Virus record (IMG/VR): IMGVR_UViG_3300005613_000075
Span: 1 to 58,669 of that record
Strand: one strand, 5' to 3'
Origin: a virus
Length of the DNA stretch: 58,669 nucleotides
The notes under the pieces were generated by a model. It was not told the origin of the DNA. It saw nothing but the letters and a program-made list of their open reading frames with translations, and made no database searches. Position numbers and translations under genes: made by a program. This document shows, piece after piece, positions 7,251 through 58,669 of this stretch (position 1 is the stretch's first letter; each line of letters starts with the position of its first letter).

Positions 7251-7279
7251 TTGCCAGTAGGAGACGACTATGGTATAAT
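7251..7279 (+). promoter_or_regulatory. Sigma70-like promoter TTGCCA-17-TATAAT
   Basis: -35 at 7251-7256, -10 at 7274-7279, exact 17-nt spacer; drives the HNH gene at 7380. Confidence 0.6.
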
Positions 7280-7379
7280 TAGGCAGTGTAGCCCCACCTA
7301 GCCTTGCGCGGGTGAAGAGCGGATTCCCTGTCCGCCTGGTGGGGCATGAATCAGGGATAACATCTGAGGGAGGTGTAAT

Positions 7380-8189
7380 GTGAATAAGAAGAAGCGTAAA
7401 GCCACCATGCGATCCGGTGGCTTTTGTCCTGTAGCAATGGATAATGTTGTATCAACAATTGGTGAACTCAATACTATTGATGGGATGGTATCTTTGCCAC
7501 GAACATTGCGTCAATACACCAGTGTGTTGAGATTGAGTATTATCGAGTTGGTGCTTGTCGAGCTTTATCTAACACAGCGATATAGACGTGGGAACATGGT
7601 ATGGCTGAATATAAGTGAATGGGCGGAGAAGATCGGAATTCATCGTTGTTCATTGGCTCGGGCTAATGCAACGCTAGAAGAAAAACAGTTCATCGTTCCA
7701 GCGGGGATGCGGCAATACGGTATTAGAGAATATGATATTACTGGCTTATTCCAAGCTCTGGCAATTTGCATAGTTTGTGACCCGAACGGGAAGTTTGCAG
7801 AGAAGAACGGGTATCATGTTGATTTAGAACAATCTGAAAAGTGGATGGAATCTATTGGCCTGCATTTCGATTTGGACTTTAGCGTATATGGTGAAGTAGA
7901 TTGCAAGAAACGCAAGTCGCAAAATGGAGCTTGGCAAATTCGCAAAGAAAACGCTGATGGCATGACTACGCAAGAACAACTGCAAGCACGTTGGGATTAT
8001 TATGGGAATCGGTGCTACATTTGCGGTGCACCTGCCGAAGCGACTGACCATGTAATACCACTCAACAAAGGTGGTAGTGATTGGCCTGCTAATCTGAGAC
8101 CCATTTGCAAACATTGCAATTCCAAGAAACGTGATAAGTGGCCTTATGATTTCGAGCAAGCCAAGCGAGATGCACCAACCAAAACTTGA
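7380..8189 (+). CDS. HNH endonuclease with N-terminal HTH-like DNA-binding region (free-standing homing-endonuclease-like gene, low GC)
   Basis: C-terminus CYICG...DHVIPLNKGG...NLRPICKHCNSKK is a canonical HNH motif. It is about 75% nt-identical to the HNH domain of 49326..50159. GGAGG SD before GTG. Confidence 0.85.
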   Translation: MNKKKRKATMRSGGFCPVAMDNVVSTIGELNTIDGMVSLPRTLRQYTSVLRLSIIELVLVELYLTQRYRRGNMVWLNISEWAEKIGIHRCSLARANATLEEKQFIVPAGMRQYGIREYDITGLFQALAICIVCDPNGKFAEKNGYHVDLEQSEKWMESIGLHFDLDFSVYGEVDCKKRKSQNGAWQIRKENADGMTTQEQLQARWDYYGNRCYICGAPAEATDHVIPLNKGGSDWPANLRPICKHCNSKKRDKWPYDFEQAKRDAPTKT

Positions 8190-28094: not shown

Positions 28095-31052
28095 ATGAAA
28101 ATACACCATGAATTGGTAGAACATCAACTGCATGTTGCGGCCCATGCTGTAGCTGACAACGCGGCCCGGGTGGCTCTGGAAGCCACTTTAGTGGCGGCAG
28201 ACCGAGGCTATCTGGTACTACAACTTGACGATGGTACAGTATGGCAGTGTGTGGCGGCGGGGACCCTGGTCTTCGTGGGTAATAACCTGTCTGGCGAGGG
28301 CTACAGCGTAGATAGCTCCGGTACAGTGACCATCAAACTGGGTGACGCGGCCGGGGCGGAGAGCTTCATCCTGACTGATTCTGGCGACGCCACAGTATTT
28401 GAGATAGATTCCAACGGAGTCATCACTACGTATGCCGCCATGACTTTCGGGGCGGATATTATTCTGGACGACGGCGCGGGCGACAGTCCTAACATTCGAT
28501 GGGTTGGTGGTAGCAACGATGACACCGCCTATATGTTCCTGGACGACGACGCGGTGGCAGGGGATTCGGATCTGGTCATCAAATTGGTAGATGCTGCTGG
28601 TGATTCGGTGCTCAAGGTACTCGACAGTGGAGACGCCACCATATTCAGTCTGGATTCCAACGGTAACATCGTGCTGGTAGATGGGGCCACTGTCGGGCAA
28701 GCAGCCGGGCCCTTGTTGACCTTCGATGATACGCTAAACTTCTTAGAGATCACCGGTTGTGATGTGGGGCTAGGTACAGCCACACCAACCGCGAATCTGG
28801 ACGTAGAACAAGCCATTGTCGCCACTGGAATACGGAAGGGCATTGTCTACACCGGCGCGATCAATACGAATCAAACCCTGTCTACCGAGATACCGGCGGT
28901 AACCATCACTACCGCCGGTCGGGAATGGGCCACAGGCGCACTGGCGTTACAACGGGAAGTGCTTATTACTCAGCCGACGTATACCTTCGTGGGAGCCAGC
29001 ACTATCACCGACGCGGCCACAGTAGGAATTGTTGGTGCACCCATCGAGAGCACCAATGCCACTATCACCAATACGCACGGGTTACTGATTCAGGCCGGCG
29101 CGGTGGGAGCGGCAGATGTATCATATGGCTTGACAGTCAACGCGCAGACCGGGGCGGGGGTGAATTATGCCGCGGTGTTATTGGGAGGCAACGTCGGAGT
29201 AGGTGTAACAGACCCGGACGAACTACTCGAATTGTACAAGGTTGGCACGCAACTCAAGTTGTCCGGTGGAGCAGCAGACTATGCTACCTTCGCGGTCGCG
29301 GCTGATGGAGCATTGACTATCACCACTGTCGATGTAGACGCGGCGGAAGCTGACATCATTCTGGCCCCAGATGGAGACGTGACATTATCACCGGCACTGA
29401 AGGTCACGGGAGACGTATATCTCACCTCCGGTCTACGGATTGGCGACATCACTACTGATCCCGATGATAACACCATCGAGATGGAAGAACGGTCTACTGA
29501 CCCCGGTGACCCAGCAGAGGGAAACGGTATCCTGTGGCTATCAGATGGGTCTGACATCGGTGAAGATGGGGATCTGATATGGAAGCGTACTGCTGGGGGA
29601 GTAACGAGGTCGATAATACTCGGAGGCGAACCGTTCTACGGAGTGATGTGGAACGAGAGCACCGATGCCTACGAACGCACCGGTACGTTAACCAGTATCG
29701 CGGTGGGAAGCTCGCCAGGGAATGGCCTGCTATCCTTACAGTCCATGATGCGGCGCTGTGTCATGGATGATACCGGTGTCATCAAGTACTACCTGTGCGC
29801 CACCGATAGTACCAAGAAAGAGGACTGCCTGACCGCGTCCGTGCTCGATGGCACAGACGGCCAGGTAATGGTAGAGATACCGAAGTTTTATTTGAGGTAT
29901 TCCTACGCGGCTAACTTGCACCGGTGGGACATCAGTCCCGTCCCGTTGGCTGGCTTCAGTGTGCACCCCGCGTTCTTCAAAAACGGCGCAGAGGTAGATG
30001 CTCGTTACATGAGCGCGTATGAGGGCATACTGTACGACGATTCCGAATCGGTGTACACCAGTGACTACAATCCCATCGCGGCGCATGCGGTGACGGTCGA
30101 TGTCGATGTCGGTGGTTCGGGGAAAGGCTCGATCACCGAGAACGCGGCGGGCGGAACTATTTATGCTCAGTTGCAAGCGGGCGATGTCATCGTCGTGACG
30201 GGTACAGCGGACAACAACGGGACATACATCGTCGAATCCATCACCGGGGGAGACGTTATCACCTGTACGGGGGTAATCGCTGGCGGGGACGGGGTAGAGG
30301 CTACCTGTGTCATCAGTGCCCCAGCGGTGGACACTGCTAACGACATTCTGTCCAGCGTCAGTGGTAAGAAACCCTTCAGTGGTATCACACGGGACAACTT
30401 CCGGTCTATCGCTGCTCTACGTGGTACAGGTTGGCGACAGTTTGACTTCTACCTAGCCAGTGCGATTCAGTTGTTGTATCTGACTGAGTATGCCAGCTTC
30501 TACTCACAGTCCATGATCGGCGCAGGCTTGACGGATTGGGTTGCTGCCACGTGGAACACCTATAATGCCTATCATGCTATTAACAACACCGGTCTGAGTA
30601 ACGGTGACGGTAACGCCACCGCGAACGTCTCAGGCGGTGACGGAGTGTTAGGCTCCTACATGACCTATCGCGGTATCGAGAACTGGTACGGTCACTTATG
30701 GAAGTTCGTAGACGGATTCAACATCAATAATAACGTGCCTTACGTCTGTAATACTGACACCGATTTCGCCGATGACACCGCTACCGATTACACCGACCTG
30801 GGCATTACGCTACACAATGCCAACGGCTGGCAGAACACGTTGGAGCAGATAAGCGGGGGATTCCTACCGGCTAGCGTGGGCGCGAGTTCGTCAACCAAGA
30901 TTACAGACTACTATTATCAGGATGCTGGTTGGCGGGTGGCTCTGCTTGGTGGTACTGCTCATGCTGGCGCGTACGCTGGGGGGTTCTATTGGACTTTGGC
31001 TTATTCGGCGGCTAGCCTTGATGCTAGGATCGGTGCTCGGCCCTGCTATTAA
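28095..31052 (+). CDS. Tail fiber / receptor-binding protein, DGR target (C-terminal variable region)
   Basis: 985 aa. The last ~45 aa (QDAGWRVALLGGTAHAGAYAGGFYWTLAYSAASLDARIGARPCY) match the common C-type-lectin-fold DGR VR pattern and are repeated downstream as TR. Confidence 0.8.
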   Translation: MKIHHELVEHQLHVAAHAVADNAARVALEATLVAADRGYLVLQLDDGTVWQCVAAGTLVFVGNNLSGEGYSVDSSGTVTIKLGDAAGAESFILTDSGDATVFEIDSNGVITTYAAMTFGADIILDDGAGDSPNIRWVGGSNDDTAYMFLDDDAVAGDSDLVIKLVDAAGDSVLKVLDSGDATIFSLDSNGNIVLVDGATVGQAAGPLLTFDDTLNFLEITGCDVGLGTATPTANLDVEQAIVATGIRKGIVYTGAINTNQTLSTEIPAVTITTAGREWATGALALQREVLITQPTYTFVGASTITDAATVGIVGAPIESTNATITNTHGLLIQAGAVGAADVSYGLTVNAQTGAGVNYAAVLLGGNVGVGVTDPDELLELYKVGTQLKLSGGAADYATFAVAADGALTITTVDVDAAEADIILAPDGDVTLSPALKVTGDVYLTSGLRIGDITTDPDDNTIEMEERSTDPGDPAEGNGILWLSDGSDIGEDGDLIWKRTAGGVTRSIILGGEPFYGVMWNESTDAYERTGTLTSIAVGSSPGNGLLSLQSMMRRCVMDDTGVIKYYLCATDSTKKEDCLTASVLDGTDGQVMVEIPKFYLRYSYAANLHRWDISPVPLAGFSVHPAFFKNGAEVDARYMSAYEGILYDDSESVYTSDYNPIAAHAVTVDVDVGGSGKGSITENAAGGTIYAQLQAGDVIVVTGTADNNGTYIVESITGGDVITCTGVIAGGDGVEATCVISAPAVDTANDILSSVSGKKPFSGITRDNFRSIAALRGTGWRQFDFYLASAIQLLYLTEYASFYSQSMIGAGLTDWVAATWNTYNAYHAINNTGLSNGDGNATANVSGGDGVLGSYMTYRGIENWYGHLWKFVDGFNINNNVPYVCNTDTDFADDTATDYTDLGITLHNANGWQNTLEQISGGFLPASVGASSSTKITDYYYQDAGWRVALLGGTAHAGAYAGGFYWTLAYSAASLDARIGARPCY
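30915..31047 (+). repeat. DGR variable repeat (VR)
   Basis: 133-nt alignment to 31075..31207 at a fixed 160-nt offset; 27 mismatches, 26 of them opposite TR adenines. Confidence 0.9.
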
Positions 31053-31074
31053 CATAATTGTAGTGGGTTGTCCA

Positions 31075-31207
31075 TATCAAAATACTGGTTGGCAGGTAGC
31101 TCTACTTAGTGGTAATGCTAATAATGGCGCGAACACTGAGGAGTTCTATTGGAATTTGAATAATTCGGCAGCTAACCTTAATGCTAATATCAGTGCTCAG
31201 CCCAGCT
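31075..31207 (+). repeat. DGR template repeat (TR)
   Basis: A-rich copy of VR. 11 AAY codons when read in the VR-equivalent frame. 26 of its 39 adenines are substituted in VR. Noncoding position between the fiber stop and the RT. Confidence 0.9.
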
Positions 31208-31330
31208 TATTTCAAATACGAAGGCAGTGAAAGATATGGAGAACCTTGCCTCTTGGCACAATACAAAGCAAAGCCTCATTGGTGTTGGTAGGACTGTAAA
31301 GTCTCGAAGGCTCCGAGGTGAAATAAGCAG

Positions 31331-32392
31331 ATGAAACGATATGGGAATTTGTATCCAAAGATTTGGGATATGGACAATATCAAGGAGGCGCATCGAAACG
31401 CACAGCGGGGGAAGAAGCATTATCAAGAAGTCCAGATGGTAAACGCTGACGAGGAGAACTATTTGGTACAGCTTCAAGCGATGCTACGAGATAAAACATT
31501 TCGTAATTCTGCTTACGAGGTGTTCACGAAAGTAGAAGGTGGCAAAGAACGTGAGATTTACCGATTGCCTTATTTCCCCGACAGGATAGTGCATCATTGC
31601 ATTATGCAGATATTGGAACCGATTTGGATGAAAACGTTCATCTCTGATACTTACGCTGCATTGAAAGGACGTGGTATTCACAAAGGCGTTAAACGTCTAA
31701 AGCTGGCATTGCGCGATGTAGAGAATACCAAGTATTGCCTGAAGTTTGATGTGCGCAAATTCTATCCTTCTATTGACCATGATATTTTGAAAGTAATACT
31801 TCGCAAGAAGATAAAAGGCCCTGATGTGTTATGGTTATTGGAGGAAATCATAGATTCCGCTGAGGGTGTTCCAATAGGCAATTATCTGAGTCAATATTTT
31901 GGTAATCTCTATTTGGCATATTTTGACCATTGGATGAAAGAAGAGAAGGGATGTAAATACTATTTTCGTTATTGTGACGATGTGGTTGTGTTGCATAGAG
32001 ACAAAGGTTTTTTGCACAAGTTGTTGATCGAGGCTCAGGAATATTTGGATACTCATTTGAAACTTCGTATGAAAGCTAACTATCAAATCTTTCCGGTCGA
32101 TAAGCGTGGGATTGATTTTCTAGGTTACCGATTCTTTCATAATTACACATTGCTACGCAAGAGCATCGTTCAAAGATTCAAGGCAAAAGTGGTGCGCATT
32201 AAACGTTCATATCGTGAAATGTTCTCAAGCCAAATCATAAATGGATTGATGAGTTACTGGGGATGGATGAAATATGGTAATTGTTTGAATTTGGCAAAGA
32301 GATACATTGACGGAAATATTAGACAAATTGTGGGAACGGTGTCTAAACAGAACGACATCAAAAATCCACTGAGGAGGTTCACATGGCTATAA
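31331..32392 (+). CDS. DGR-type reverse transcriptase
   Basis: RT motifs YRLPYFPDRIVHH, FDVRKFYPSIDH, IGNYLSQYFGNLYL (DGR-typical I/LGxxxSQ motif 4), YCDDVVV (YxDD), FLGY. 353 aa; conspicuously lower GC than the flanks. Confidence 0.88.
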   Translation: MKRYGNLYPKIWDMDNIKEAHRNAQRGKKHYQEVQMVNADEENYLVQLQAMLRDKTFRNSAYEVFTKVEGGKEREIYRLPYFPDRIVHHCIMQILEPIWMKTFISDTYAALKGRGIHKGVKRLKLALRDVENTKYCLKFDVRKFYPSIDHDILKVILRKKIKGPDVLWLLEEIIDSAEGVPIGNYLSQYFGNLYLAYFDHWMKEEKGCKYYFRYCDDVVVLHRDKGFLHKLLIEAQEYLDTHLKLRMKANYQIFPVDKRGIDFLGYRFFHNYTLLRKSIVQRFKAKVVRIKRSYREMFSSQIINGLMSYWGWMKYGNCLNLAKRYIDGNIRQIVGTVSKQNDIKNPLRRFTWL

Positions 32393-38425: not shown

Positions 38426-38719
38426 GTGAGTCAGCACGAGAGACTAACGGGTGCAAGTCCGGCTTGTTGGGAAGACTCGCACTTTTGGGGAGACGTGATC
38501 TACAGGCACGGGGGACACGCGGATCGTTCGCCCCACGCACGCGTGGAGGTTTGGCAAGTCCCTACCGCTCTTCATAGCTCGTGTCCCATGCGGACAAGGA
38601 GTATACGACGCCGCCTGCTTGAACAGGCGGCGTTTGCTTTATTTCTGGATAGTGTGTATAATAGAGGTGATAGGGAACTTGGGCGGTTTTTTTCTCGCCA
38701 CATGAGCCCGCATATTTAG
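38426..38719 (+). CDS. Questionable ORF; its 5' part encodes CWEDSHFWGDVIYRHGGHA, paralogous to a segment of 53549..53821
   Basis: About 85% nt identity over ~65 nt to 53661-53725, with many differences at codon third positions. However, the ORF has no SD and reads through a strong terminator and the next promoter. Confidence 0.25.
   Translation: MSQHERLTGASPACWEDSHFWGDVIYRHGGHADRSPHARVEVWQVPTALHSSCPMRTRSIRRRLLEQAAFALFLDSVYNRGDRELGRFFSRHMSPHI
38608..38644 (+). terminator. Rho-independent terminator
   Basis: ACGCCGCCTG-cttgaa-CAGGCGGCGT perfect 10-bp stem followed by a TTTGCTTTATTT tract. Confidence 0.8.
38634..38662 (+). promoter_or_regulatory. Sigma70-like promoter TTGCTT-17-TATAAT
   Basis: -35 at 38634-38639 inside the terminator tail, -10 at 38657-38662; start of the early region. 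Confidence 0.5.
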
Positions 38720-38801
38720 CTCAACCGACCCGTTCCCTATCAAGAATGGCGAGGGGCTGAATGTGCGGGCTTTTGTGTTGCAGAGAGGGAAGTGTGAGAA
38801 C

Positions 38802-38891
38802 ATGGGCTTCTGGGAGGGATTTGCGTTTGGGTATGCCACTTGTCTAATCGTGGTGACAATCTGGTCGTTCACCACCGGGAAGAAAATATAA
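38802..38891 (+). CDS. Possible 29-aa hydrophobic peptide
   Basis: MGFWEGFAFGYATCLIVVTIWSFTTGKKI; GAGAGGGA SD-like sequence about 13 nt upstream (long spacing); below the ORF-track cutoff. Confidence 0.25.
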   Translation: MGFWEGFAFGYATCLIVVTIWSFTTGKKI

Positions 38892-38915
38892 AGCAGAAAC
38901 GGAGCGGAGATAGCC

Positions 38916-39584
38916 ATGACCATCACCACCCTTGCCACCGTGATCTGTTGGCTGGCTCCCGTGCCGTCGGCCTACCTGGTAGGCACGTCCGCCATGCGGA
39001 ACCTTAATCTACCACTACCGGTGGCGGTGGTGCTAGCCTTTGTGATCGAGGGCCTGGGGTTAGTGTGCTCCCATCTGGCCCTGGGCTTCTGGAACCACAA
39101 CCGCCACACTTACCGCCTGGCGGAATATCGCCGGGCCTGGACGGAGTTCTGGCTAGAGATCGGGATGTACACTTTGTACTTTGTCACCACCCTAGCGTTA
39201 CTGGCAATGCTGGAACTGGCCTGGGTGACGCTTCTATTCCCGGTACTGGCGGCCATCGGCGTGGTGAACCTGGCCCTGTTGCGCCAACTGGCGGAGCTAC
39301 GAACACCGGTGAAACGGGTGGCACAGCCTATCGTACAAAAGACGAACAAGAAGAACAAACCGGAAACACCAGATACAGGCAACGAACTGGATAATGCTAT
39401 CTTGTCGTATTACCACGAATATCGGTACGCTACCATGAGACAAGTCGCTTCTCAGGTAGGCTGCGCGGCATCAACCGTGAACAAGCATGTTCGCAAAATG
39501 GAAACAGCGGGATACCTCAGCCGGAATGGCAAAGGAACGGAGGTAAACATGAGTAATACGAAAACAGAAGGGGGAGAACCATGA
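38916..39584 (+). CDS. Membrane protein (about 4 TM) with C-terminal winged-helix DNA-binding-like domain
   Basis: Hydrophobic N-terminal 120 aa; C-terminus YATMRQVASQVGCAASTVNKHVRKMETAGYLSRNG resembles a MarR-type wHTH. Confidence 0.5.
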   Translation: MTITTLATVICWLAPVPSAYLVGTSAMRNLNLPLPVAVVLAFVIEGLGLVCSHLALGFWNHNRHTYRLAEYRRAWTEFWLEIGMYTLYFVTTLALLAMLELAWVTLLFPVLAAIGVVNLALLRQLAELRTPVKRVAQPIVQKTNKKNKPETPDTGNELDNAILSYYHEYRYATMRQVASQVGCAASTVNKHVRKMETAGYLSRNGKGTEVNMSNTKTEGGEP

Positions 39585-41048: not shown

Positions 41049-41077
41049 TTGACAAATATACAGATATGTGGTATAAT
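41049..41077 (+). promoter_or_regulatory. Strong sigma70-like early promoter TTGACA-17-TATAAT with TGn extended -10
   Basis: Consensus hexamers; shares downstream TATAATAATTATAGAAT with the promoter at 43169. Confidence 0.7.
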
Positions 41078-41533: not shown

Positions 41534-41734
41534 ATGAATTGCAATCAATGTGGAGCAGAACTGGATAAGAGCGAGATCGCCAAGATGGTCAATGGCGAGA
41601 AGCCCTACGACTTCGCAGACACCCCGGACAGATGGGGTGTCGATCCGGAGAACTGTGACTGGTTCTGCGGAGACTGCGCCCGCAGTTTCGACAACAACGT
41701 CCCGGAGGACTGGGAGGTATACTATCTCGGATAG
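41534..41734 (+). CDS. Small zinc-ribbon protein
   Basis: CNQCG...CGDC; 66 aa. Confidence 0.5.
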   Translation: MNCNQCGAELDKSEIAKMVNGEKPYDFADTPDRWGVDPENCDWFCGDCARSFDNNVPEDWEVYYLG

Positions 41735-41806
41735 CCGAAACGCCCCACCCTGGGGCGTCTGCCGGGGATAGTCGCCCGGCACTGACGAAGGCAGACTGAG
41801 AGGAGA

Positions 41807-42058
41807 ATGAAAATGTCAGTTTGGAAGAAGTTGAGCTGTGGACACACTGTGTCTAACTCAATGTTAGACACGGAATGGAAAACTGGCTACTGTCAGACGT
41901 GCAAGGGCCGGTTTGATATAGTCGGCGATGAGTCCACTGTTGAGTGGACGCCTGGTCGCGTAGCGGGGACGATGGCCCGCTACGCTCCTCCGAAGGGGCG
42001 TCCAGAGCACCGGGACGATGGGGGAGACCCCAATCCCGGGTTCGGGAGAGGAGAATAA
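41807..42058 (+). CDS. Small Cys-containing protein
   Basis: GAGAGGAGA SD; CGH...CQTC; 83 aa. Confidence 0.5.
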   Translation: MKMSVWKKLSCGHTVSNSMLDTEWKTGYCQTCKGRFDIVGDESTVEWTPGRVAGTMARYAPPKGRPEHRDDGGDPNPGFGRGE

Positions 42059-43168: not shown

Positions 43169-43197
43169 TTGACATTAGTACAGAAGTGTGATATAAT
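43169..43197 (+). promoter_or_regulatory. Strong sigma70-like early promoter TTGACA-17-TATAAT with TGn extended -10
   Basis: Consensus hexamers; paralog of the promoter at 41049. Confidence 0.7.
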
Positions 43198-45371: not shown

Positions 45372-45433
45372 CCACCATCCCCGCCGACACCTGAGAAACG
45401 GGCGGCGGGGGTATGATGAAAGGAGACAGAACG

Positions 45434-46063
45434 ATGGAATCAGAAAAGCTACAGATGATTCTGAAATCACATGAGAAGCATCTGAATGGGGAAAAAGACG
45501 GTCAGCGCGCCGACCTGTACGGGGCCAACCTGCGCGGGGCCGACCTGTACGAGGCCGACCTGAGCGAGGCCAACCTGTACGGGGCCAACCTGTACGGGGC
45601 CGACCTGTACGGGGCCAACCTGCGCGGGGCCAACCTGTACGGGGCCGACCTGCGCGAGGCCAACCTGCGCGGGGCCGACCTGAGCGAGACTAAGGGATTA
45701 CTCAATCCCACAACTTGGCTTCGAGAGAAATTCAAAACCACACCGGAGGGGCTGATAGTCTACAAAGCCCTTGGAGATACATATCAGCCTGCCCCGTCCC
45801 ACTGGACAACTGCGCCGGGCGAATATCTGGAGGAAGTCGTCAATCCAGATCGGGGGACCGACTGCGGGTGCGGGGTCAACTTTGCCACACCGGAATGGAT
45901 ACAGGCTAATTACAGCGGGAGAATCCAGAACGGCACTGTCCAGGTCTGGGAATGTCTGATTGAATGGCTTGATCTGGCTTCTGTGGTCGTGCCGTTCAAC
46001 ACCGATGGCAAGGCACGGTGTGGACGGCTGAAACTGTTGCGGACCGCAGGAGAGACACCATGA
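45434..46063 (+). CDS. Pentapeptide-repeat protein with C-terminal globular domain
   Basis: At least 12 consecutive A(D/N)LxG/E pentapeptides ([25 protein letters not shown]...); AGGAG SD before the ATG at 45434 (track start 45413). Confidence 0.8.
45509..45688 (+). repeat. 12 tandem 15-bp units GCC(G/A)ACCTG(T/C/A)(A/G)CG(G/A)G (coding, pentapeptide repeats)
   Basis: Counted directly; units nearly identical at nt level. Confidence 0.9.
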
Positions 46064-47667: not shown

Positions 47668-47880
47668 ATGACTGATCGCCTGTACGCCAATTGGGAACGG
47701 GAGACGGTAATCGCTGTCTCGTTGGGCAATATGCCCTACGAGGAGTATTCACCAGAAGAGCGTGCTACCTGGATAGCAGCCAGTTTGCTGCGCTGGGCGG
47801 AAGACAACGACATCAGCTTGAATTACCATAACGCGTATCAACAAGCAGAGACCATAATAGGCTGGGATGGTGAACCTTGA
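47668..47880 (+). CDS. Hypothetical protein
   Basis: GGAGG SD; 70 aa. Confidence 0.5.
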   Translation: MTDRLYANWERETVIAVSLGNMPYEEYSPEERATWIAASLLRWAEDNDISLNYHNAYQQAETIIGWDGEP

Positions 47881-47905
47881 CAATCCATGAATTGTGTGGT
47901 AGAAT
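47877..47905 (+). promoter_or_regulatory. Sigma70-like promoter TTGACA-17-TAGAAT (TGn extended -10)
   Basis: Shares an extended box GTGAACCTTGACAAT...TGTG(G/A)TAGAATGGG with the promoter at 50178. Confidence 0.65.
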
Positions 47906-49155: not shown

Positions 49156-49184
49156 TTGACAAACAAACCAATGTCTGCTATACT
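49156..49184 (+). promoter_or_regulatory. Sigma70-like promoter TTGACA-17-TATACT (copy A)
   Basis: Paralogous to 52260..52288. Confidence 0.65.
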
Positions 49185-49185
49185 A

Positions 49186-49302
49186 TAGGTGCTGAAGATG
49201 TGAAGTCGATTTTTGTTTGTCACCGAAGGCCCATGTATTTACCGGAATCGACTGCATCTTCAGCAATGCGGCAAACACCGGTAAGTGCGTGGGCTTTTGT
49301 TG
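49186..49302 (+). ncRNA. Conserved structured leader RNA, copy A (stem-enclosed domain plus terminator)
   Basis: P1 GCTGAAGATG (49191-49200)/CATCTTCAGC (49255-49264). P1b AGTCGA/TCGACT. Terminator arms 49229-49245/49278-49294 plus TTTTGTTG. Covaries with copy B. Confidence 0.55.
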
Positions 49303-49325
49303 TGGAGAAACAAGGACTAGCTAAC

Positions 49326-50159
49326 ATGGATACTAAAAAATGCACCAAATGCGGGACTATCAAACCAATAAGCGAATTTTACAAGAACAGAAGTAAACCG
49401 AGCGGCCTCGCTTGTGAGTGTAAGACTTGTGCGCGAGCTTATGCTAATCTCCGCTATGCTAATAATCAAGAGAAGATTGCAATCATTCAAAAAATTTCTC
49501 GTGCAAAACACCAGGAACGGATAACCGCTTACAATAAAAATTACTATGCCAAGCATCAAGAAAGGAATATCGCCAGAGCAAGGATTTACCGATCTAGCCG
49601 TAGAAAAGAAATGGCTGCTTATACTAGAGCCTACTACGCCGAGCACAAAGAGGAGAAAAGGATTTACAACAAAAATTATCTCCTCAATAACTTGGAGAGT
49701 GTAGCCGCCCGCAAGAAAATTTATCGATATAAATATAAGGATAAAGTAGCAGCACGTCAGAAGGCTTATCGCTCAGTGAATAAAGATAAAGTAGCAGCAC
49801 GTCAGAAGGCTTATTATACCGAACACAAGGAGAGAATCGCTGCTCGTAGCAAAATCTACCGCGCTGCAAACCTAGATAAACATCGAGCAAGTCAGGCAAA
49901 ACGTAAAGCGATTAAAATCAATGCGCCTGGCAATGCGACTGCCGAGCAGATTGCTGCACGGTGGGAAGTGTATGGCAACAAATGTTACATCTGTGGCGCG
50001 CCTGCGGAAGCCACAGACCACGTGATACCGCTTGACAAAGGTGGTAGTAATTGGCCGGCAAACCTTCGACCTATATGCAAGCGGTGCAATTCTACTAAGG
50101 GAGCGAAGTGGCCTTATGATTTCAAAGAAGCACAGGCGGTGGGGAATCGGACGGGATAG
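49326..50159 (+). CDS. HNH endonuclease with N-terminal zinc ribbon and tandem helical (YRxxNxEK-type) repeats
   Basis: CTKCG...CKTC. Repeated KxYxxxHxERIAAxxKxY units, including a 30-bp exact direct repeat (49740-49769 and 49785-49814). CYICG...DHVIPLDKGG...NLRPICKRCNSTKG. Low GC. Confidence 0.85.
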   Translation: MDTKKCTKCGTIKPISEFYKNRSKPSGLACECKTCARAYANLRYANNQEKIAIIQKISRAKHQERITAYNKNYYAKHQERNIARARIYRSSRRKEMAAYTRAYYAEHKEEKRIYNKNYLLNNLESVAARKKIYRYKYKDKVAARQKAYRSVNKDKVAARQKAYYTEHKERIAARSKIYRAANLDKHRASQAKRKAIKINAPGNATAEQIAARWEVYGNKCYICGAPAEATDHVIPLDKGGSNWPANLRPICKRCNSTKGAKWPYDFKEAQAVGNRTG

Positions 50160-50177: not shown

Positions 50178-50206
50178 TTGACAATGATGACGAAGTGTGA
50201 TAGAAT
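50178..50206 (+). promoter_or_regulatory. Sigma70-like promoter TTGACA-17-TAGAAT
   Basis: Consensus -35, 17-nt spacer; paralog of 47877. Confidence 0.65.
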
Positions 50207-52259: not shown

Positions 52260-52288
52260 TTGACAAATATTCTGATTGGTGCTATACT
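52260..52288 (+). promoter_or_regulatory. Sigma70-like promoter TTGACA-17-TATACT (copy B)
   Basis: Paralogous to 49156..49184. Confidence 0.65.
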
Positions 52289-52289
52289 A

Positions 52290-52405
52290 TAGACGCTAAG
52301 ATGTGAAGTCGCTTTTTTGTTTGCCAACAGAGGCCCTTGTATTACCGGAAGCGACCGCATCTTAGCAGTGTGGCAAACACCGGTAACACAAGGGCTTTTG
52401 TTTTT
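52290..52405 (+). ncRNA. Conserved structured leader RNA, copy B
   Basis: P1 GCTAAGATG (52295-52303)/CATCTTAGC (52358-52366). P1b GTCGC/GCGAC. Terminator arms 52333-52348/52380-52395 plus TTTTGTTTTT. Confidence 0.55.
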
Positions 52406-52424
52406 GAGCAAATGGAGGCTAGTC

Positions 52425-53027
52425 ATGGGTAACATCGTATCAGCAGGGGTAGACATTCGGGGCACGCGTCCGTTCCTGTGGCATTGGTTTGGACCGAACG
52501 CTATCTCATTGGAGAAGGTCGAACGGACGGGAGTGGCCGGCAACGACCCACAAGAGTGGCGCAATTCTGTTTTGTTCACCAACGAAGGCCAGCTATACAT
52601 CGAACCGACGTACGTCTTCGGTTCGATTCGAGACGGCAGCAAGCATACCAAGAAAGGCAGAGGCAGTATCCAGAAACTTGTCACGGCGACCTTGCAGGTA
52701 GTGAATGACCGTATCCTATTTGACCGGTTCATACCGGGATTCGACAAGGGATTGCCTGATGAACTCACTACTGATAATGAGCAACCGGTTTATCTTGACG
52801 TGAGGTCATGTGTCAATCCCAGCACCAGAGGGCGCAACGTGCGTTACCGGGTCGCGGCAGCGGCGGGTTGGCAGGCGTTCTTCCGCATCGAATGGGATAA
52901 GACCATCGTCTCTACCGGTGAGATGCAAGCTGTTCTGATTGACGCCGGGCGGTTGGCAGGCATTGGGGACGGGCGCAATATCGGATTTGGTCGCTATGAG
53001 ATCGTCGGGGTAGACCTCAGCGACTAA
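52425..53027 (+). CDS. Hypothetical 200-aa protein with C-terminal glycine-rich loop GIGDGRNIGFGRYEIV (RAMP/Cas6-like motif, speculative)
   Basis: GGAGG SD at 52414; the upstream part of tracked ORF 52317.. is promoter/leader. The helix-Gly-loop-strand pattern resembles the RAMP G-rich loop. Confidence 0.5.
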   Translation: MGNIVSAGVDIRGTRPFLWHWFGPNAISLEKVERTGVAGNDPQEWRNSVLFTNEGQLYIEPTYVFGSIRDGSKHTKKGRGSIQKLVTATLQVVNDRILFDRFIPGFDKGLPDELTTDNEQPVYLDVRSCVNPSTRGRNVRYRVAAAAGWQAFFRIEWDKTIVSTGEMQAVLIDAGRLAGIGDGRNIGFGRYEIVGVDLSD

Positions 53028-53045
53028 CGCTGCCTGGTATGGAGC

Positions 53046-53120
53046 GTGGCAAGGCCAGGCCTGGCTAGGCTGGGTGAGGCTAGTCCTGGCATGGCGCGGC
53101 TTGGCCGGGCGAGGCAAGGG
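53046..53120 (+). repeat. Array 1 of pentanucleotide-periodic NNGGC motif (15 units)
   Basis: gtGGC aaGGC caGGC ctGGC taGGC tgGGT gaGGC taGTC ctGGC atGGC gcGGC ttGGC cgGGC gaGGC aaGGG; 12/15 exact GGC. Confidence 0.9.
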
Positions 53121-53149
53121 AAAGACTGCCATTATCGTTACAACCAGGT

Positions 53150-53224
53150 ATGGCGAGGTGAGGCTGGGCCCGGCCGGGCTGGGCCAGGCGGGGCGAGGTC
53201 TGGCTTGGCGGGGCAAGGCAAGGA
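53150..53224 (+). repeat. Array 2 of pentanucleotide-periodic NNGGC motif (15 units), ending on the SD of the next gene
   Basis: atGGC gaGGT gaGGC tgGGC ccGGC cgGGC tgGGC caGGC ggGGC gaGGT ctGGC ttGGC ggGGC aaGGC aaGGA; 12/15 exact GGC. Confidence 0.9.
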
Positions 53225-53233
53225 GAATCATCA

Positions 53234-53524
53234 ATGCCCAAAAGCAGGCAACCGCAAGAGGTATGGCAAGAGACAAGACGCATTGTCTGGGAACGTGACA
53301 GGCACAAGTGCGTTCACTGTGGTGAGTCTGTGAAGCTCGAAGAGTGCCACATTGACCACATCAAGTCGGGTAAGTTAGCTGGCAACGAGTTAAGCAACCT
53401 GCGAACATTGTGCCGTCGATGTCATGTGTTGCGAGTAGACAAACGACATCGGGGGATGATAGCGTCGGCATTACGAGATGGAATTATCCCATCGGATTGG
53501 CGGGGGCTGGTATGGGGGGAATAA
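53234..53524 (+). CDS. Small HNH endonuclease
   Basis: CVHCG...CHIDHIKSG...NLRTLCRRCHVLR; AAGGAG SD at 53219-53224. Confidence 0.75.
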   Translation: MPKSRQPQEVWQETRRIVWERDRHKCVHCGESVKLEECHIDHIKSGKLAGNELSNLRTLCRRCHVLRVDKRHRGMIASALRDGIIPSDWRGLVWGE

Positions 53525-56803: not shown

Positions 56804-56945
56804 CTTAGAATTCACTTGGAGTGAAACGTGAAATTGAGCGATTTGAACTAATGTGGAAGGCAGGGACTAATTACCCTTGCTGACTGGCGGGACGCCTCCA
56901 CGTCCCGCCAGTCCCACAACATCTTGGAGGAGGTGTAGTGTGGAT

Positions 56946-57599
56946 ATGAAGAAGTGTAACAAATGTGGCGAGGTAAAGCCTGTTAGTGAGTTCAACAAGA
57001 GGCCGTCAAGTAGAGATGGGCTGCGATCGGAATGCAAGGTTTGTCGGGCGGCATACAAAAGAAAACACTATCTTGCTAATCGGGAGGCAATAAGGGCCAA
57101 ACATAGAGACTATTATATTAAGCATAGCGAAGAGATCAGGGCTCGTGTTAAGATATATGGCAAGGAACATCGGGCGCAATGTGCAGCCAGAAATAAGGCT
57201 TATCGTATCAAATACAAGGAAAAATTTATTGCCTACGATAAGGCTTATCGGGCTAAACATAAACAGCGAATAAAAGCCGTGCTGAGCAAGTGGCATAAAG
57301 ACAATCCCGAGAAGGTCCGGGAGGCGAAGTTCCGTCGCCGTGCCCATGAGCACGAAGTATCTGGATATGCTACAGCAGAGCAGGTAGCAGCGAGAAGAGA
57401 AGTGTTTGGAAATCGATGTTATATTTGCGGAGAAGAGGCAGAGGCAATGGACCATGTTAAGCCATTGGCAAAAGGCGGGGCAAATTGGCCGTGCAACTTA
57501 AGGCCGATCTGTAAGCTCTGCAATTGTTCAAAGCAAGCAAAGTGGCCATTTGATATTGAGGCTGCTAGAATAGAAACGATGGGAGACAATGGCCGGTAG
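56946..57599 (+). CDS. HNH endonuclease with N-terminal zinc ribbon and helical repeats, adjacent to terminase
   Basis: CNKCG...CKVC; repeated xxYRxKHxxxI units; CYICG...DHVKPLAKGG...NLRPICKLCNCSK; low GC. Confidence 0.85.
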   Translation: MKKCNKCGEVKPVSEFNKRPSSRDGLRSECKVCRAAYKRKHYLANREAIRAKHRDYYIKHSEEIRARVKIYGKEHRAQCAARNKAYRIKYKEKFIAYDKAYRAKHKQRIKAVLSKWHKDNPEKVREAKFRRRAHEHEVSGYATAEQVAARREVFGNRCYICGEEAEAMDHVKPLAKGGANWPCNLRPICKLCNCSKQAKWPFDIEAARIETMGDNGR

Positions 57600-58233
57600 G
57601 CGGACGATATGCACGCCAGAAGTAATAAAGGCAGTGTGCGATAATATTACGTTGGGATTGAGTAACCATGATGCTGCGGTATTGGCAGGCATTGCTGAAG
57701 CAACATTTTATGGTTGGTTGAAGCGTGGCGAATTAGAAACGCAACGGGTAGCAGAAACATCACGTAGACAGATACGCCAGCGTGAACGTCCCTTCGTCGA
57801 ATTTTTAGAGGCAGTAAAAAAGGCCAAATCAGTTCGCAAGCAAGTTCTCATCGGGCGTATTCAGAAGGCCGCCCAGGGTGGGACGGAATATACTGAGACC
57901 AAGACGGTACATAAGGGCGGCAAGGTGGTGGAAGAAACAATTACAACGAAACGACTTCATCCAGAATGGACGGCTGCAGCTTGGTTATTGGAACGGATGC
58001 ACCCGGATGAATTCGGGCGGCGGCAGCGGGTAGACGTGTATGACTGGCGACAGGAAGTAGTAGAGATGCTACAGGCAGGGGCTATTACCCCACAGGATGT
58101 GTATGAACAACTTGGACATGAATATGCCACCGACGTTCTTAAGTCCGCCGGGATTGTTATCTTTGGGAATGGACAATCTGCGGAAGGTGGCAAAACAGAG
58201 GACGACACAAACAAAGACGAAGTGGCCGACTGA
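57589..58233 (+). CDS. terS: Terminase small subunit (putative)
   Basis: N-terminal HTH (ITLGLSNHDAAVLAGIAEATFYGWLKRG), 214 aa, immediately upstream of terL. Confidence 0.65.
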   Translation: MAGRRTICTPEVIKAVCDNITLGLSNHDAAVLAGIAEATFYGWLKRGELETQRVAETSRRQIRQRERPFVEFLEAVKKAKSVRKQVLIGRIQKAAQGGTEYTETKTVHKGGKVVEETITTKRLHPEWTAAAWLLERMHPDEFGRRQRVDVYDWRQEVVEMLQAGAITPQDVYEQLGHEYATDVLKSAGIVIFGNGQSAEGGKTEDDTNKDEVAD

Positions 58234-58669
58234 GCACTTGGTTGGGCCAGATGAAGTCACACCGGTCAAGTTCCACCAGGGTCAACAGTGGGCTTGGGAC
58301 GCTGAGCAACGGTGGGTAGCGATGATAAGCGGCACTCAGTCTGGGAAAACGCAGTGGGCTCCCTGGTGGTTGAAACGTGAGATTGAGGGACGGGGCAACG
58401 GCGACTATATTGCTATTTGCCCTACTTATGACTTGTATACCTTGAAAGCTCTCCCTGCGCTGCTCAAGGTGTTTTGTGACATTTGTAACATTGGTAAGTA
58501 TTGGGGCGGAACCAGAGTTGTAGAAATTCGAGAAGATGCAAAGCCAGATGGCAAGTTCTGGGCCAAGACCTCAAAAGACCCGATGTGGGCTAGGATTATT
58601 CTACGCTCTGCTGACAGTGAGGGTGGGCTAGAGGCGGCTACTGCAAAGGGGGCATGGTTGGATGAAGCA
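58169..58669 (+). CDS. terL: Terminase large subunit, N-terminal portion (continues at position 124 via the 123-bp overlap; start uncertain: ATG 58169 or TTG 58238)
   Basis: Walker A GTQSGKT encoded at 58331-58351; the frame is continuous with 37..1047 (58583 corresponds to 37). Confidence 0.8.
   Translation, partial: MDNLRKVAKQRTTQTKTKWPTEHLVGPDEVTPVKFHQGQQWAWDAEQRWVAMISGTQSGKTQWAPWWLKREIEGRGNGDYIAICPTYDLYTLKALPALLKVFCDICNIGKYWGGTRVVEIREDAKPDGKFWAKTSKDPMWARIILRSADSEGGLEAATAKGAWLDEA
58547..58669. repeat. Terminal direct repeat, exact copy of 1..123
   Basis: Identical 123 nt. Confidence 0.95.

Follow-up and report, generated by a model that had tools for sequence, protein, structure and literature searches.

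In phages HK022 and lambda, the put and nut elements are paralogous structured RNAs located just downstream of several strong phage promoters, where they alter the response of RNA polymerase to terminators, and neither put nor nut RNA is interleaved with a terminator. In the late module of lambda (PR'-6S RNA-tR'), a constitutive strong promoter directs a short terminated transcript, and a long operon is expressed only once the terminator is overcome; control is exerted by Q, a DNA-binding protein, together with a pause close to the promoter, and no conserved RNA hairpin around an arm of the terminator is required. Here a promoter-linked RNA leader is described that occurs in three copies (A, B and C) in IMG/VR virus record IMGVR_UViG_3300005613_000075 (positions 1 to 58,669; this whole stretch of 58,669 nucleotides (nt) is hereafter the window), once at the head of a VIPR locus. 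With very high confidence, as judged by sequence comparison, the leader represents a real and selected RNA structure of an uncatalogued family. VIPR systems, first described in 2026, are carried by phages and bind DNA under the guidance of RNA; they were presented as minimal systems that may be ancestral to the RAMPs of CRISPR (bioRxiv 10.64898/2026.04.26.720920, 10.64898/2026.04.26.720927). According to the text of the same two preprints, Vipr proteins are phage-borne RAMPs that polymerise on vrRNAs of 9-16 YNNGG repeats and bind DNA through a gapped code; the vrRNAs are about 100 nt long, lie in the intergenic regions flanking vipr and carry a 3' tail reported as a pseudoknot, and the systems include accessory vap genes, some with HNH domains. 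The preprint text, apart from figures and supplements, mentions no terminator, leader or structured 5' untranslated region, and does not address the control of VIPR expression.

Copies A (49156-49325) and B (52260-52424) are present where the original prediction had placed them, on the plus strand and in front of two unrelated genes. They are 83% identical over about 200 aligned columns, the flanking coding sequences being unrelated, and are probably recent paralogues. The promoter of copy A (49156-49184) consists of TTGACA (49156-49161), a 17-nt spacer and a TG-extended TATACT (49179-49184), which ends 5 nt ahead of the first base of the RNA stem P1; that of copy B (52260-52288) has the same TTGACA, 17-nt spacer and TG-extended TATACT. 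Each agrees with the sigma70 consensus at 11 of 12 positions, and the pattern TTGACA-N16-18-TATACTATAG was found at exactly two sites in the window, against none expected from 100 shuffles. The 5' domain of the copy A RNA (49190-49265) is formed by P1 (49190-49201/49254-49265) and an inner stem, P1b (49205-49211/49246-49252), of which the loop contains a U-rich block (49210-49221) and the 5' arm of a terminator hairpin, T. This hairpin (49226-49302) is made up of the 5' arm (49226-49245), the 3' arm (49278-49297) and a U tract (49295-49302), and within its loop of 32 nt lie the P1b 3' strand, the P1 3' strand and then the GGCAAACA block (49270-49277). Translation signals follow at 49312-49328, namely AAGGA (49312-49316) as ribosome-binding site and the ATG at 49326. 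In the copy B RNA (52295-52405), likewise on the plus strand, P1 is located at 52295-52304/52357-52366, P1b at 52308-52314/52349-52355 and the U-rich block at 52313-52325, followed by the 5' arm of T (52332-52348), the GGCAAACA block (52372-52379), the 3' arm (52380-52395) and the U tract (52396-52405).

The differences between copies A and B listed in the original prediction were all found, and every one of them retains pairing. P1 is GCUGAAGAUG/CAUCUUCAGC in copy A and GCU-AAGAUG/CAUCUU-AGC in copy B, with one base fewer per strand in the latter; P1b is GUCGA/UCGAC in copy A and GUCGC/GCGAC in copy B, an A-U pair being replaced by C-G; and in the terminator stem one A-U pair is changed to U-A and several U.G pairs to U-A. 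Three conserved blocks had been taken as single-stranded. Of these, GTGAAGTCG belongs in part to P1b as its 5' strand, TTTTTGTTTG can pair with alternative partners, and GGCAAACACCGGTAA consists of linker sequence in one half and of the top of the 3' arm of the terminator in the other. Both copies fold far below shuffled energies (z = -5.6 and -5.1 for A and B, respectively), and the minimum-energy fold of each is a single long hairpin, T, followed by the U tract, the P1 fold being a competing alternative.

The two copies originally noted are joined by a third, copy C (38634-38790 from the promoter to the end, plus strand), which was revealed by a crude helix-descriptor scan and then recognised by direct reading of the sequence. 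The scan was very noisy, its real yield among 252 hits being copy C and one locus of another phage (L239). The promoter of copy C (38634-38662) consists of TTGCTT, a 17-nt spacer and TATAAT with TGTG upstream, and is located just past an ordinary terminator (38607-38634). Its RNA (38668-38780) includes P1 (38668-38678/38732-38742), P1b (38681-38686/38725-38731), the U-rich block UUUUUUUCUCGCC (38687-38699), the 5' arm of T (38705-38722), the GGCGAGGG block (38748-38755) and the 3' arm (38754-38771), after which UUUUG follows. The stems of copy C have almost no sequence in common with those of copies A and B, and the layout is identical.

Searches with the element as DNA query, by megablast and blastn against cultured phages and by megablast against Escherichia coli genomes, gave no match. 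Conserved exact 14- and 15-mers in IMG/VR led to 188 loci, none of which has the rest of the element by blastn, and were discarded as chance matches. Loci were therefore gathered through the protein encoded after copy B, for which 1395 homologues were collected: a close-relative scan of IMG/VR proteins with the single copy B protein sequence gave no relatives and tblastn of this protein against cultured phages no match, but profile-based scans succeeded, yielding 45 viral, 80 metagenomic and 45 genomic loci (designated here by L numbers). A two-sequence nucleotide profile matched L209 (twice) and L210. A covariance model built from the three copies of the window only (R1) detected 11 further distinct instances, each of which immediately precedes a vipr homologue on the plus strand, a refined model (R2) brought the number of instances to 19 in all, and six more were recognised by eye (L198 at about 2870-2990, L237, L248, L252, L272 and L278). 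Copy A scores 110-137 bits with models R1 and R2, and copy C 114 bits with R1 and 91 bits with R2. Altogether, the element recurs in about 20 metagenomic contigs of uncultured phages, most often directly before vipr, and in none of the 45 loci from bacterial genomes and metagenome-assembled genomes. In a scan of IMG/VR with a gapped pattern, which was independent of vipr, two of 38 loci were real (L389, which is identical to L209a, and L377). The same gapped pattern was matched by 13 large-phage contigs of 87-288 kb, all with the same 112-nt span (L366, L367, L372, L373, L379, L384, L386, L387, L390, L392, L393, L394 and L397); model R2 does not match them, and they seem to share some conserved sequence outside the leader family. 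Apart from chance microRNA matches (E of at least 0.28) given by copies A and B in cmscan against the 4227 families of Rfam 15, no Rfam family matches any of the three copies, even at E <= 10, in agreement with the original prediction, which could assign the element to no known class.

The order of elements in the RNA of about 115 nt is the 5' strand of P1, the 5' strand of P1b, the U-rich block, the 5' arm of T, the 3' strand of P1b, the 3' strand of P1, a linker block, the 3' arm of T and the U tract, with P1 of 10-16 bp, P1b of 4-8 bp and T of 15-21 bp across the instances. In the alignment of 19 sequences, 96.1% of the 279 cells of P1/P1b are paired, and both partners have changed in every one of the 15 pairs (96 cells), a level reached by none of 500 shuffles; upon sliding the partner columns by 1-3 positions, pairing drops to 28-43%. 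For T, a separate model (R3) was used, which was seeded with copies A and B and L236 and contains the T pairs only and no P1 pairs; the resulting alignment has ten rows, including an artefact from the reverse strand of copy B, and in it 93.7% of the T cells are paired, both partners vary in 15 of 17 pairs, and pairing drops to 34-49% when the columns are slid. Independently of any alignment, RNAduplex of the P1b loop against the sequence downstream of P1 gave z values between -4.6 and -10.3 in all 19 instances (-8.1 for copy A and -7.2 for copy C). The original suggestion of a functional structured RNA with compensatory changes is thus borne out by homologues in other phages, which covary both in P1/P1b and in the terminator stem. 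P1/P1b and T cross in these homologues as well, because the 5' arm of T lies inside the P1b loop, as had been predicted from copies A and B under the alternative of mutually exclusive folds or a pseudoknot.

Folded alone, the 5' domain reaches -25 to -49 kcal/mol (-29.5 kcal/mol in copy A), with P1b extended by U-A and U.G pairs that take up the last 2-4 nt of the 5' arm of T. P1/P1b and T cannot both form fully, owing to the crossing and to these shared nucleotides; as in an attenuator, a second covarying structure, P1/P1b, is thus incompatible with full T. Among nested folds, the P1-forced structure is within 0-14 kcal/mol of the minimum-energy (T) fold, the two being equal in four instances, and near-equal energies of this kind are what a two-state element would look like. 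The stem of T is G+C-rich at its base, and UUU(U)G comes after the hairpin in 17 of 19 instances, the arrangement of a terminator stem with its U tract.

A promoter of sigma70 type, usually TG-extended, ends 5-7 nt before P1 in 17 of the 18 instances with upstream sequence. The predicted 5' end of the RNA is therefore the base of P1, and the conserved module includes the promoter. On the other side, the ribosome-binding site and start codon follow closely: in 17 of 19 instances, 17-31 nt separate the U tract from the start codon; this gap has no room for a promoter, and hence the downstream gene needs read-through of T. Mainly for this reason, a cis-regulatory role is ranked above that of a stand-alone small-RNA gene.

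Based on the conserved sequence organization, the element is more probably than otherwise a cis-acting conditional intrinsic terminator, or attenuator, in a leader fused to a strong promoter of sigma70 type. From the arrangement of the two helices, we infer that P1/P1b would serve as the anti-terminator, that termination at T would be conditional, and how the switch might be directed and tipped. Transcription would start at the foot of the P1/P1b hairpin, whose loop carries the U-rich block and the 5' arm of T. As long as P1/P1b is held, T could not close to its G+C-rich base and polymerase would read into the operon; once T is formed, transcription would stop and an RNA of about 115 nt would be released. 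Alternatively, P1b alone may switch while P1 persists. In the read-through transcript, the T helix would extend further, and the U-rich block may cover the ribosome-binding site. Within the window, the module would gate three units, the VIPR cassette (vipr, two vrRNA arrays and the HNH vap gene), the HNH endonuclease gene and a third operon. As the trigger, a protein of phage or host, RNase III acting on the long helix, or the speed of polymerase is more plausible than a metabolite.

Two additional pairings of the U-rich block are plausible on the basis of folding models. A third helix with the linker block (UUUGYC with GRCAAA) can be recognised clearly in about 12 instances, and in three of these the two blocks have changed together, namely copy C (CUCGCC/GGCGAG), L208 (GUCGCAG/UUGCGAC) and L198a (GAAUGGUU/GGCCAUUC). 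In most instances, moreover, the best T duplex runs beyond the U tract and places the U-rich block onto the ribosome-binding site, as in copy A, of which the lowest-energy duplex pairs the U-rich block with AAACAAGGA. A small hairpin is also predicted within the T loop, with weak support (mean z of about -1). Two further candidates were rejected: a start-stop mini-ORF (open reading frame) in P1 (AUGUGA or AUGUAA) is present in some members only and at a spacing from the ribosome-binding site that is unusable, and for an early terminator ahead of the U-rich block there is no hairpin at that position.

Several observations weigh against the attenuator interpretation. P1 is long, very stable and made before the 3' arm of T, so that by simple kinetics P1 would always win and the conservation of T would be left unexplained; something must therefore prevent or undo P1 for T to matter. 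RNAfold computes structures without pseudoknots, and the coexistence of P1 and T with P1b open is outside its reach. The loop of T is 28-35 nt long, against 3-8 nt for compact terminators, and a consensus terminator scan does not call T. The third helix is 78% paired against 70% in shuffles and absent in six instances, which gives it moderate support, and the mean z of the pairing between the U-rich block and the linker is about -1 against shuffles. Likewise, the pairing between the U-rich block and the ribosome-binding site has a mean z of about -1 against composition-matched shuffles, and cognate partners are no better than non-cognate ones; U-rich sequence pairs generically with purine-rich sites. 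Finally, nearly all loci were fetched through the vipr gene, leading to a sampling bias.

The gene behind copy B, annotated as hypothetical in the original prediction, was identified by profile and structure matches as vipr (52425-53027, 200 amino acids), preceded by a GGAGG ribosome-binding site at 52414-52418 (52414-53027 as a whole, plus strand). The protein contains no Pfam domain and matches phrog_4652. Its AlphaFold model (pLDDT 83, pTM 0.79) is related by Foldseek to Csm3/Cas7 chains of type III and type VII CRISPR systems (E of about 1e-8), and the C-terminus of the family consensus contains the RAMP-like glycine-rich loop GLGDGRxIGFGRF. The family profile matched the PDB entry 36pp_D, 'SUSP1 Vipr protein', with E = 6.8e-9 over residues 8-195, against E = 0.0055 for the single sequence alone. 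The gene at 52425 thus combines a predicted RAMP fold with a single RRM, a link to a characterised Vipr and an adjacent YNNGG array, and its product is, by these sequence and model comparisons, the Vipr RAMP protein of a VIPR system.

Directly after the vipr stop codon, a scan for 5-nt periodicity detected two arrays of YNNGG pentamers on the plus strand (about 53033-53118 and 53137-53222). With both strands scanned, such arrays were found at about 53000-53200 only, and in no copy of the leader. Under the definition of vrRNA given in the text of bioRxiv 10.64898/2026.04.26.720920, the two arrays are the predicted vrRNA guide arrays of the VIPR locus, which would be transcribed from the copy B promoter through T. 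They are followed by the gene for a small protein of 96 amino acids with a Pfam HNH domain (53234-53524, plus strand), which has a homologue at the same position in L198 and is probably an accessory (vap) gene of the cassette; the last repeats of the second array also serve as the ribosome-binding site of this gene. By its predicted gene and array content, the segment 52425-53524 is a complete VIPR locus. With the NN code of the vrRNAs, no target was found in the window, its own leaders and promoters included, above a shuffled-order control.

The leader is present at 21 of 155 vipr loci. Upstream arrays are absent from all 21. Of these loci, 20 extend far enough downstream to be assessed, and 16 have an array there; among all vipr loci, the corresponding figures are 115 of 148. 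The pentamer arrays found upstream of some vipr homologues are upstream vrRNAs. The cassette of leader, vipr, array and HNH gene is found in phages that are otherwise non-syntenic with the window, as judged by comparison of upstream regions. In L198 (5922-6500), and also in L228, a second vipr paralogue is present with 28% identity to the family and an hhalign probability of 99.4%; in L198 it is located 2.3 kb downstream of the first and has its own leader copy, with a homologue of the small HNH gene between the two. In many cases, vipr genes that lack the leader are preceded by a strong promoter of which the -10 region lies inside a conserved GGTTATAATGGTTATAG-like sequence (L192, L194, L251, L253, L256, L258, L263, L265 and L269), maybe another regulatory site.

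The association with vipr is not exclusive. Copy A is followed by an HNH endonuclease gene (49326-50159, plus strand, 277 amino acids), for which an exact-protein look-up gave no record, and L209a by unannotated ORFs. Behind copy C (38802-39584, plus strand), a ribosome-binding site and a 29-codon hydrophobic ORF (38802-38891) are followed by the gene for a protein of 222 amino acids (38916-39584), which has a winged-helix-like region at its C-terminus and weak matches to Ren-like and MarR-like PHROG families. The HNH endonuclease gene is one of three paralogues (7380-8189, 49326-50159 and 56877-57599) with 61-74% nucleotide identity over their 3' parts, the third of which adjoins the gene for the small terminase subunit (57589-58233).

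The same set of observations was considered under other explanations. Recent duplication of the promoter region along with insertion of an HNH homing endonuclease, the structure being incidental, would account for the 83% identity of copies A and B, promoter included, and would be in keeping with the two paralogues of the HNH gene elsewhere in the genome, as mobile endonuclease genes often have. Copy C and the approximately 20 copies in other phages, however, keep P1, P1b and T although the stem sequences change completely, with stem identity almost nil, and the differences between A and B themselves retain pairing; duplication is therefore a highly improbable reading, and as a complete explanation it is ruled out by the covariation of P1/P1b and T, while a recent A/B duplication may hold as history. 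The two alternative conserved folds of similar energy and the terminator-type expression platform would also suit a metabolite- or ion-sensing riboswitch with the P1/P1b domain as aptamer. In the 19-sequence alignment, however, the junctions vary in length and sequence, and conservation is limited to the U-rich block and a few A residues; with so few invariant unpaired bases a metabolite aptamer is unlikely. In addition, P1 far exceeds the usual length of switching helices, no metabolic theme is apparent among the genes downstream (vipr, HNH and phage regulators), and none of the described aptamers in Rfam is matched, so that a riboswitch has very little to recommend it. Scarcely better placed is a processive antitermination element of the put or nut kind, in which P1/P1b, with or without a phage protein, would modify polymerase and T would remove the polymerases left unmodified: it agrees with the presence of several copies per phage, each right after a strong promoter heading a long operon, and with a conserved hairpin containing an internal loop, but leaves unexplained why the 5' arm of T lies inside the hairpin loop in every member, and neither a sequence or model match to known elements nor a candidate antiterminator protein was identified.

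Two explanations center on the RNA of about 115 nt itself or on the VIPR system, and both are considered unlikely, the latter slightly more so. As a trans-acting small RNA, possibly pseudoknotted with P1 and T formed and P1b open, the terminated transcript would be the product and the downstream genes would be expressed by leakage. A gene of this kind would be expected to have a strong promoter of its own, a terminator and an RNA 5' end sequestered in a helix, as is the case here; also in line with it are the conservation of both crossing helices, as in one final fold, the constrained linker of 7-17 nt between P1 and the 3' arm of T, and the sequence conservation of the U-rich block, which resembles a seed region or an Hfq site. 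Against a trans-acting role stand the dependence of the closely spaced downstream gene on read-through and the stems that are wholly different between copies in one phage, which leave the U-rich block as the sole possible shared trans-acting part; no candidate target was identified. Alternatively, the leader might be specific to VIPR, as an autoregulatory site for Vipr, Vipr-vrRNA or the HNH vap protein, or as an RNA component without repeats. Vipr is an RNA-binding RAMP protein, and the position of the leader directly upstream of vipr at 21 loci, the second paralogue of L198 with a leader of its own and the recurrence of the cassette in otherwise non-syntenic phages would all be accounted for. 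The leader, however, lacks the YNNGG periodicity that Vipr recognises, copies A, C and L209a precede other genes, 134 of the 155 vipr loci have no leader, the association is partly due to sampling based on vipr, and searching the window with the vrRNA code gave no target above the control. It is doubtful, at a similarly low level, that the released RNA is a second, repeat-free component or sensor of VIPR, being pseudoknotted or bound by Vipr, vap or Vipr-vrRNA. If this is true, such binding would couple the level of free RAMP to transcription of vipr, the guide arrays and other phage operons, and this CRISPR-related family would gain its first described regulatory RNA circuit.

With the leader, a well-supported RNA family is placed right at the predicted transcription start of some VIPR cassettes and of other operons of the same phages. 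A terminator arm inside the loop of the competing hairpin may illustrate anti-termination by topology rather than by competition for bases. For annotators, the leader provides a marker for promoter-led cassettes in uncultured phage genomes, and would represent a concrete regulatory device.

A number of other features were observed in the window. At 7251-7356 on the plus strand, a promoter-like site (7251-7279) and an int-alpA RNA (RF02996, 50 bits, 7291-7356, the only such match) precede the HNH gene at 7380-8189; this gene and the HNH gene that follows copy A are paralogues, so that paralogous endonuclease genes are headed by structured leaders of two different kinds. A type II hammerhead ribozyme (Rfam, 71 bits) was detected at 41733-41800 (plus strand) between two small plus-strand ORFs; it overlaps the end of the ORF at 41535-41735, lies just before an ATG near 41809 and does not adjoin the vrRNA arrays. 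Arrays interspersed with hammerheads are described in the text of the VIPR preprint (bioRxiv 2026) for other VIPR systems. A second class of near-consensus promoters with TTGACA, a 17-nt spacer and TG-extended TATAAT or TAGAAT is located on the plus strand at 41049-41077, 43169-43197, 47877-47905 and 50178-50206; an operator-looking spacer (ACAGA..TGTG) is shared by those at 41049 and 43169 and, more loosely, 50178. The leader follows none of these promoters, and the site at 50178 is located between the HNH gene and the replication initiator. A diversity-generating retroelement is present at 30915-32392 (plus strand), including variable and template repeats (30915-31047 and 31075-31207, 80% identical), an RT-17 RNA (Rfam, 31242-31334) and an ORF of the size of a reverse transcriptase (31331-32392). 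The gene at 45413-46063 (plus strand) consists largely of 15-nt tandem repeats and encodes a pentapeptide-repeat protein. The ends of the window, 1-123 and 58547-58669, are identical over 123 nt, so that the contig is circular or terminally redundant with a unit of 58,546 bp. ENA contig ERZ27256772 k141_2609504 has essentially the same sequence, and a JGI contig (sample 3300005346) shares 99.9% identity with the window over 8 kb.

Compared with these and other known systems, the leader has partial counterparts. Like the leader, int-alpA RNA is structured and precedes a phage gene, in this case the HNH paralogue, being flanked by a promoter-like site on one side and by the ribosome-binding site of the gene on the other; the three leader copies do not match its model even at E <= 10, below the gathering threshold, and homology was rejected in view of its different fold, which has one closing helix around two small hairpins and no terminator hairpin. 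As for the vrRNAs in the preprint text, the leader is located in an intergenic region flanking vipr, and the upstream vrRNA of some relatives likewise sits between promoter and vipr; in contrast to vrRNAs, the leader has no YNNGG repeats and also precedes genes other than vipr, while the real vrRNA arrays are located downstream of vipr. Copies of the leader lie just downstream of strong promoters as do put and nut, but the terminator is interleaved with the structure and there is no similarity in sequence or model. With the lambda PR'-6S-tR' module the leader shares a strong promoter, a short terminated RNA and an operon behind it, and it differs in the hairpin that encloses the terminator arm, no Q-like protein having been identified. 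The terminator/anti-terminator leaders resemble it in the promoter-proximal location, in the two alternative folds, one of which is a hairpin with a U tract just before the ribosome-binding site, and in the need for read-through. The present leader is different from these: it contains neither a leader peptide nor a known motif for protein binding, and it has no conserved aptamer core; its presumed anti-terminator encloses the 5' arm of the terminator in its loop, with only 2-4 nt shared between the two, its stems are unusually long, P1 in particular, and its promoter belongs to the conserved module.

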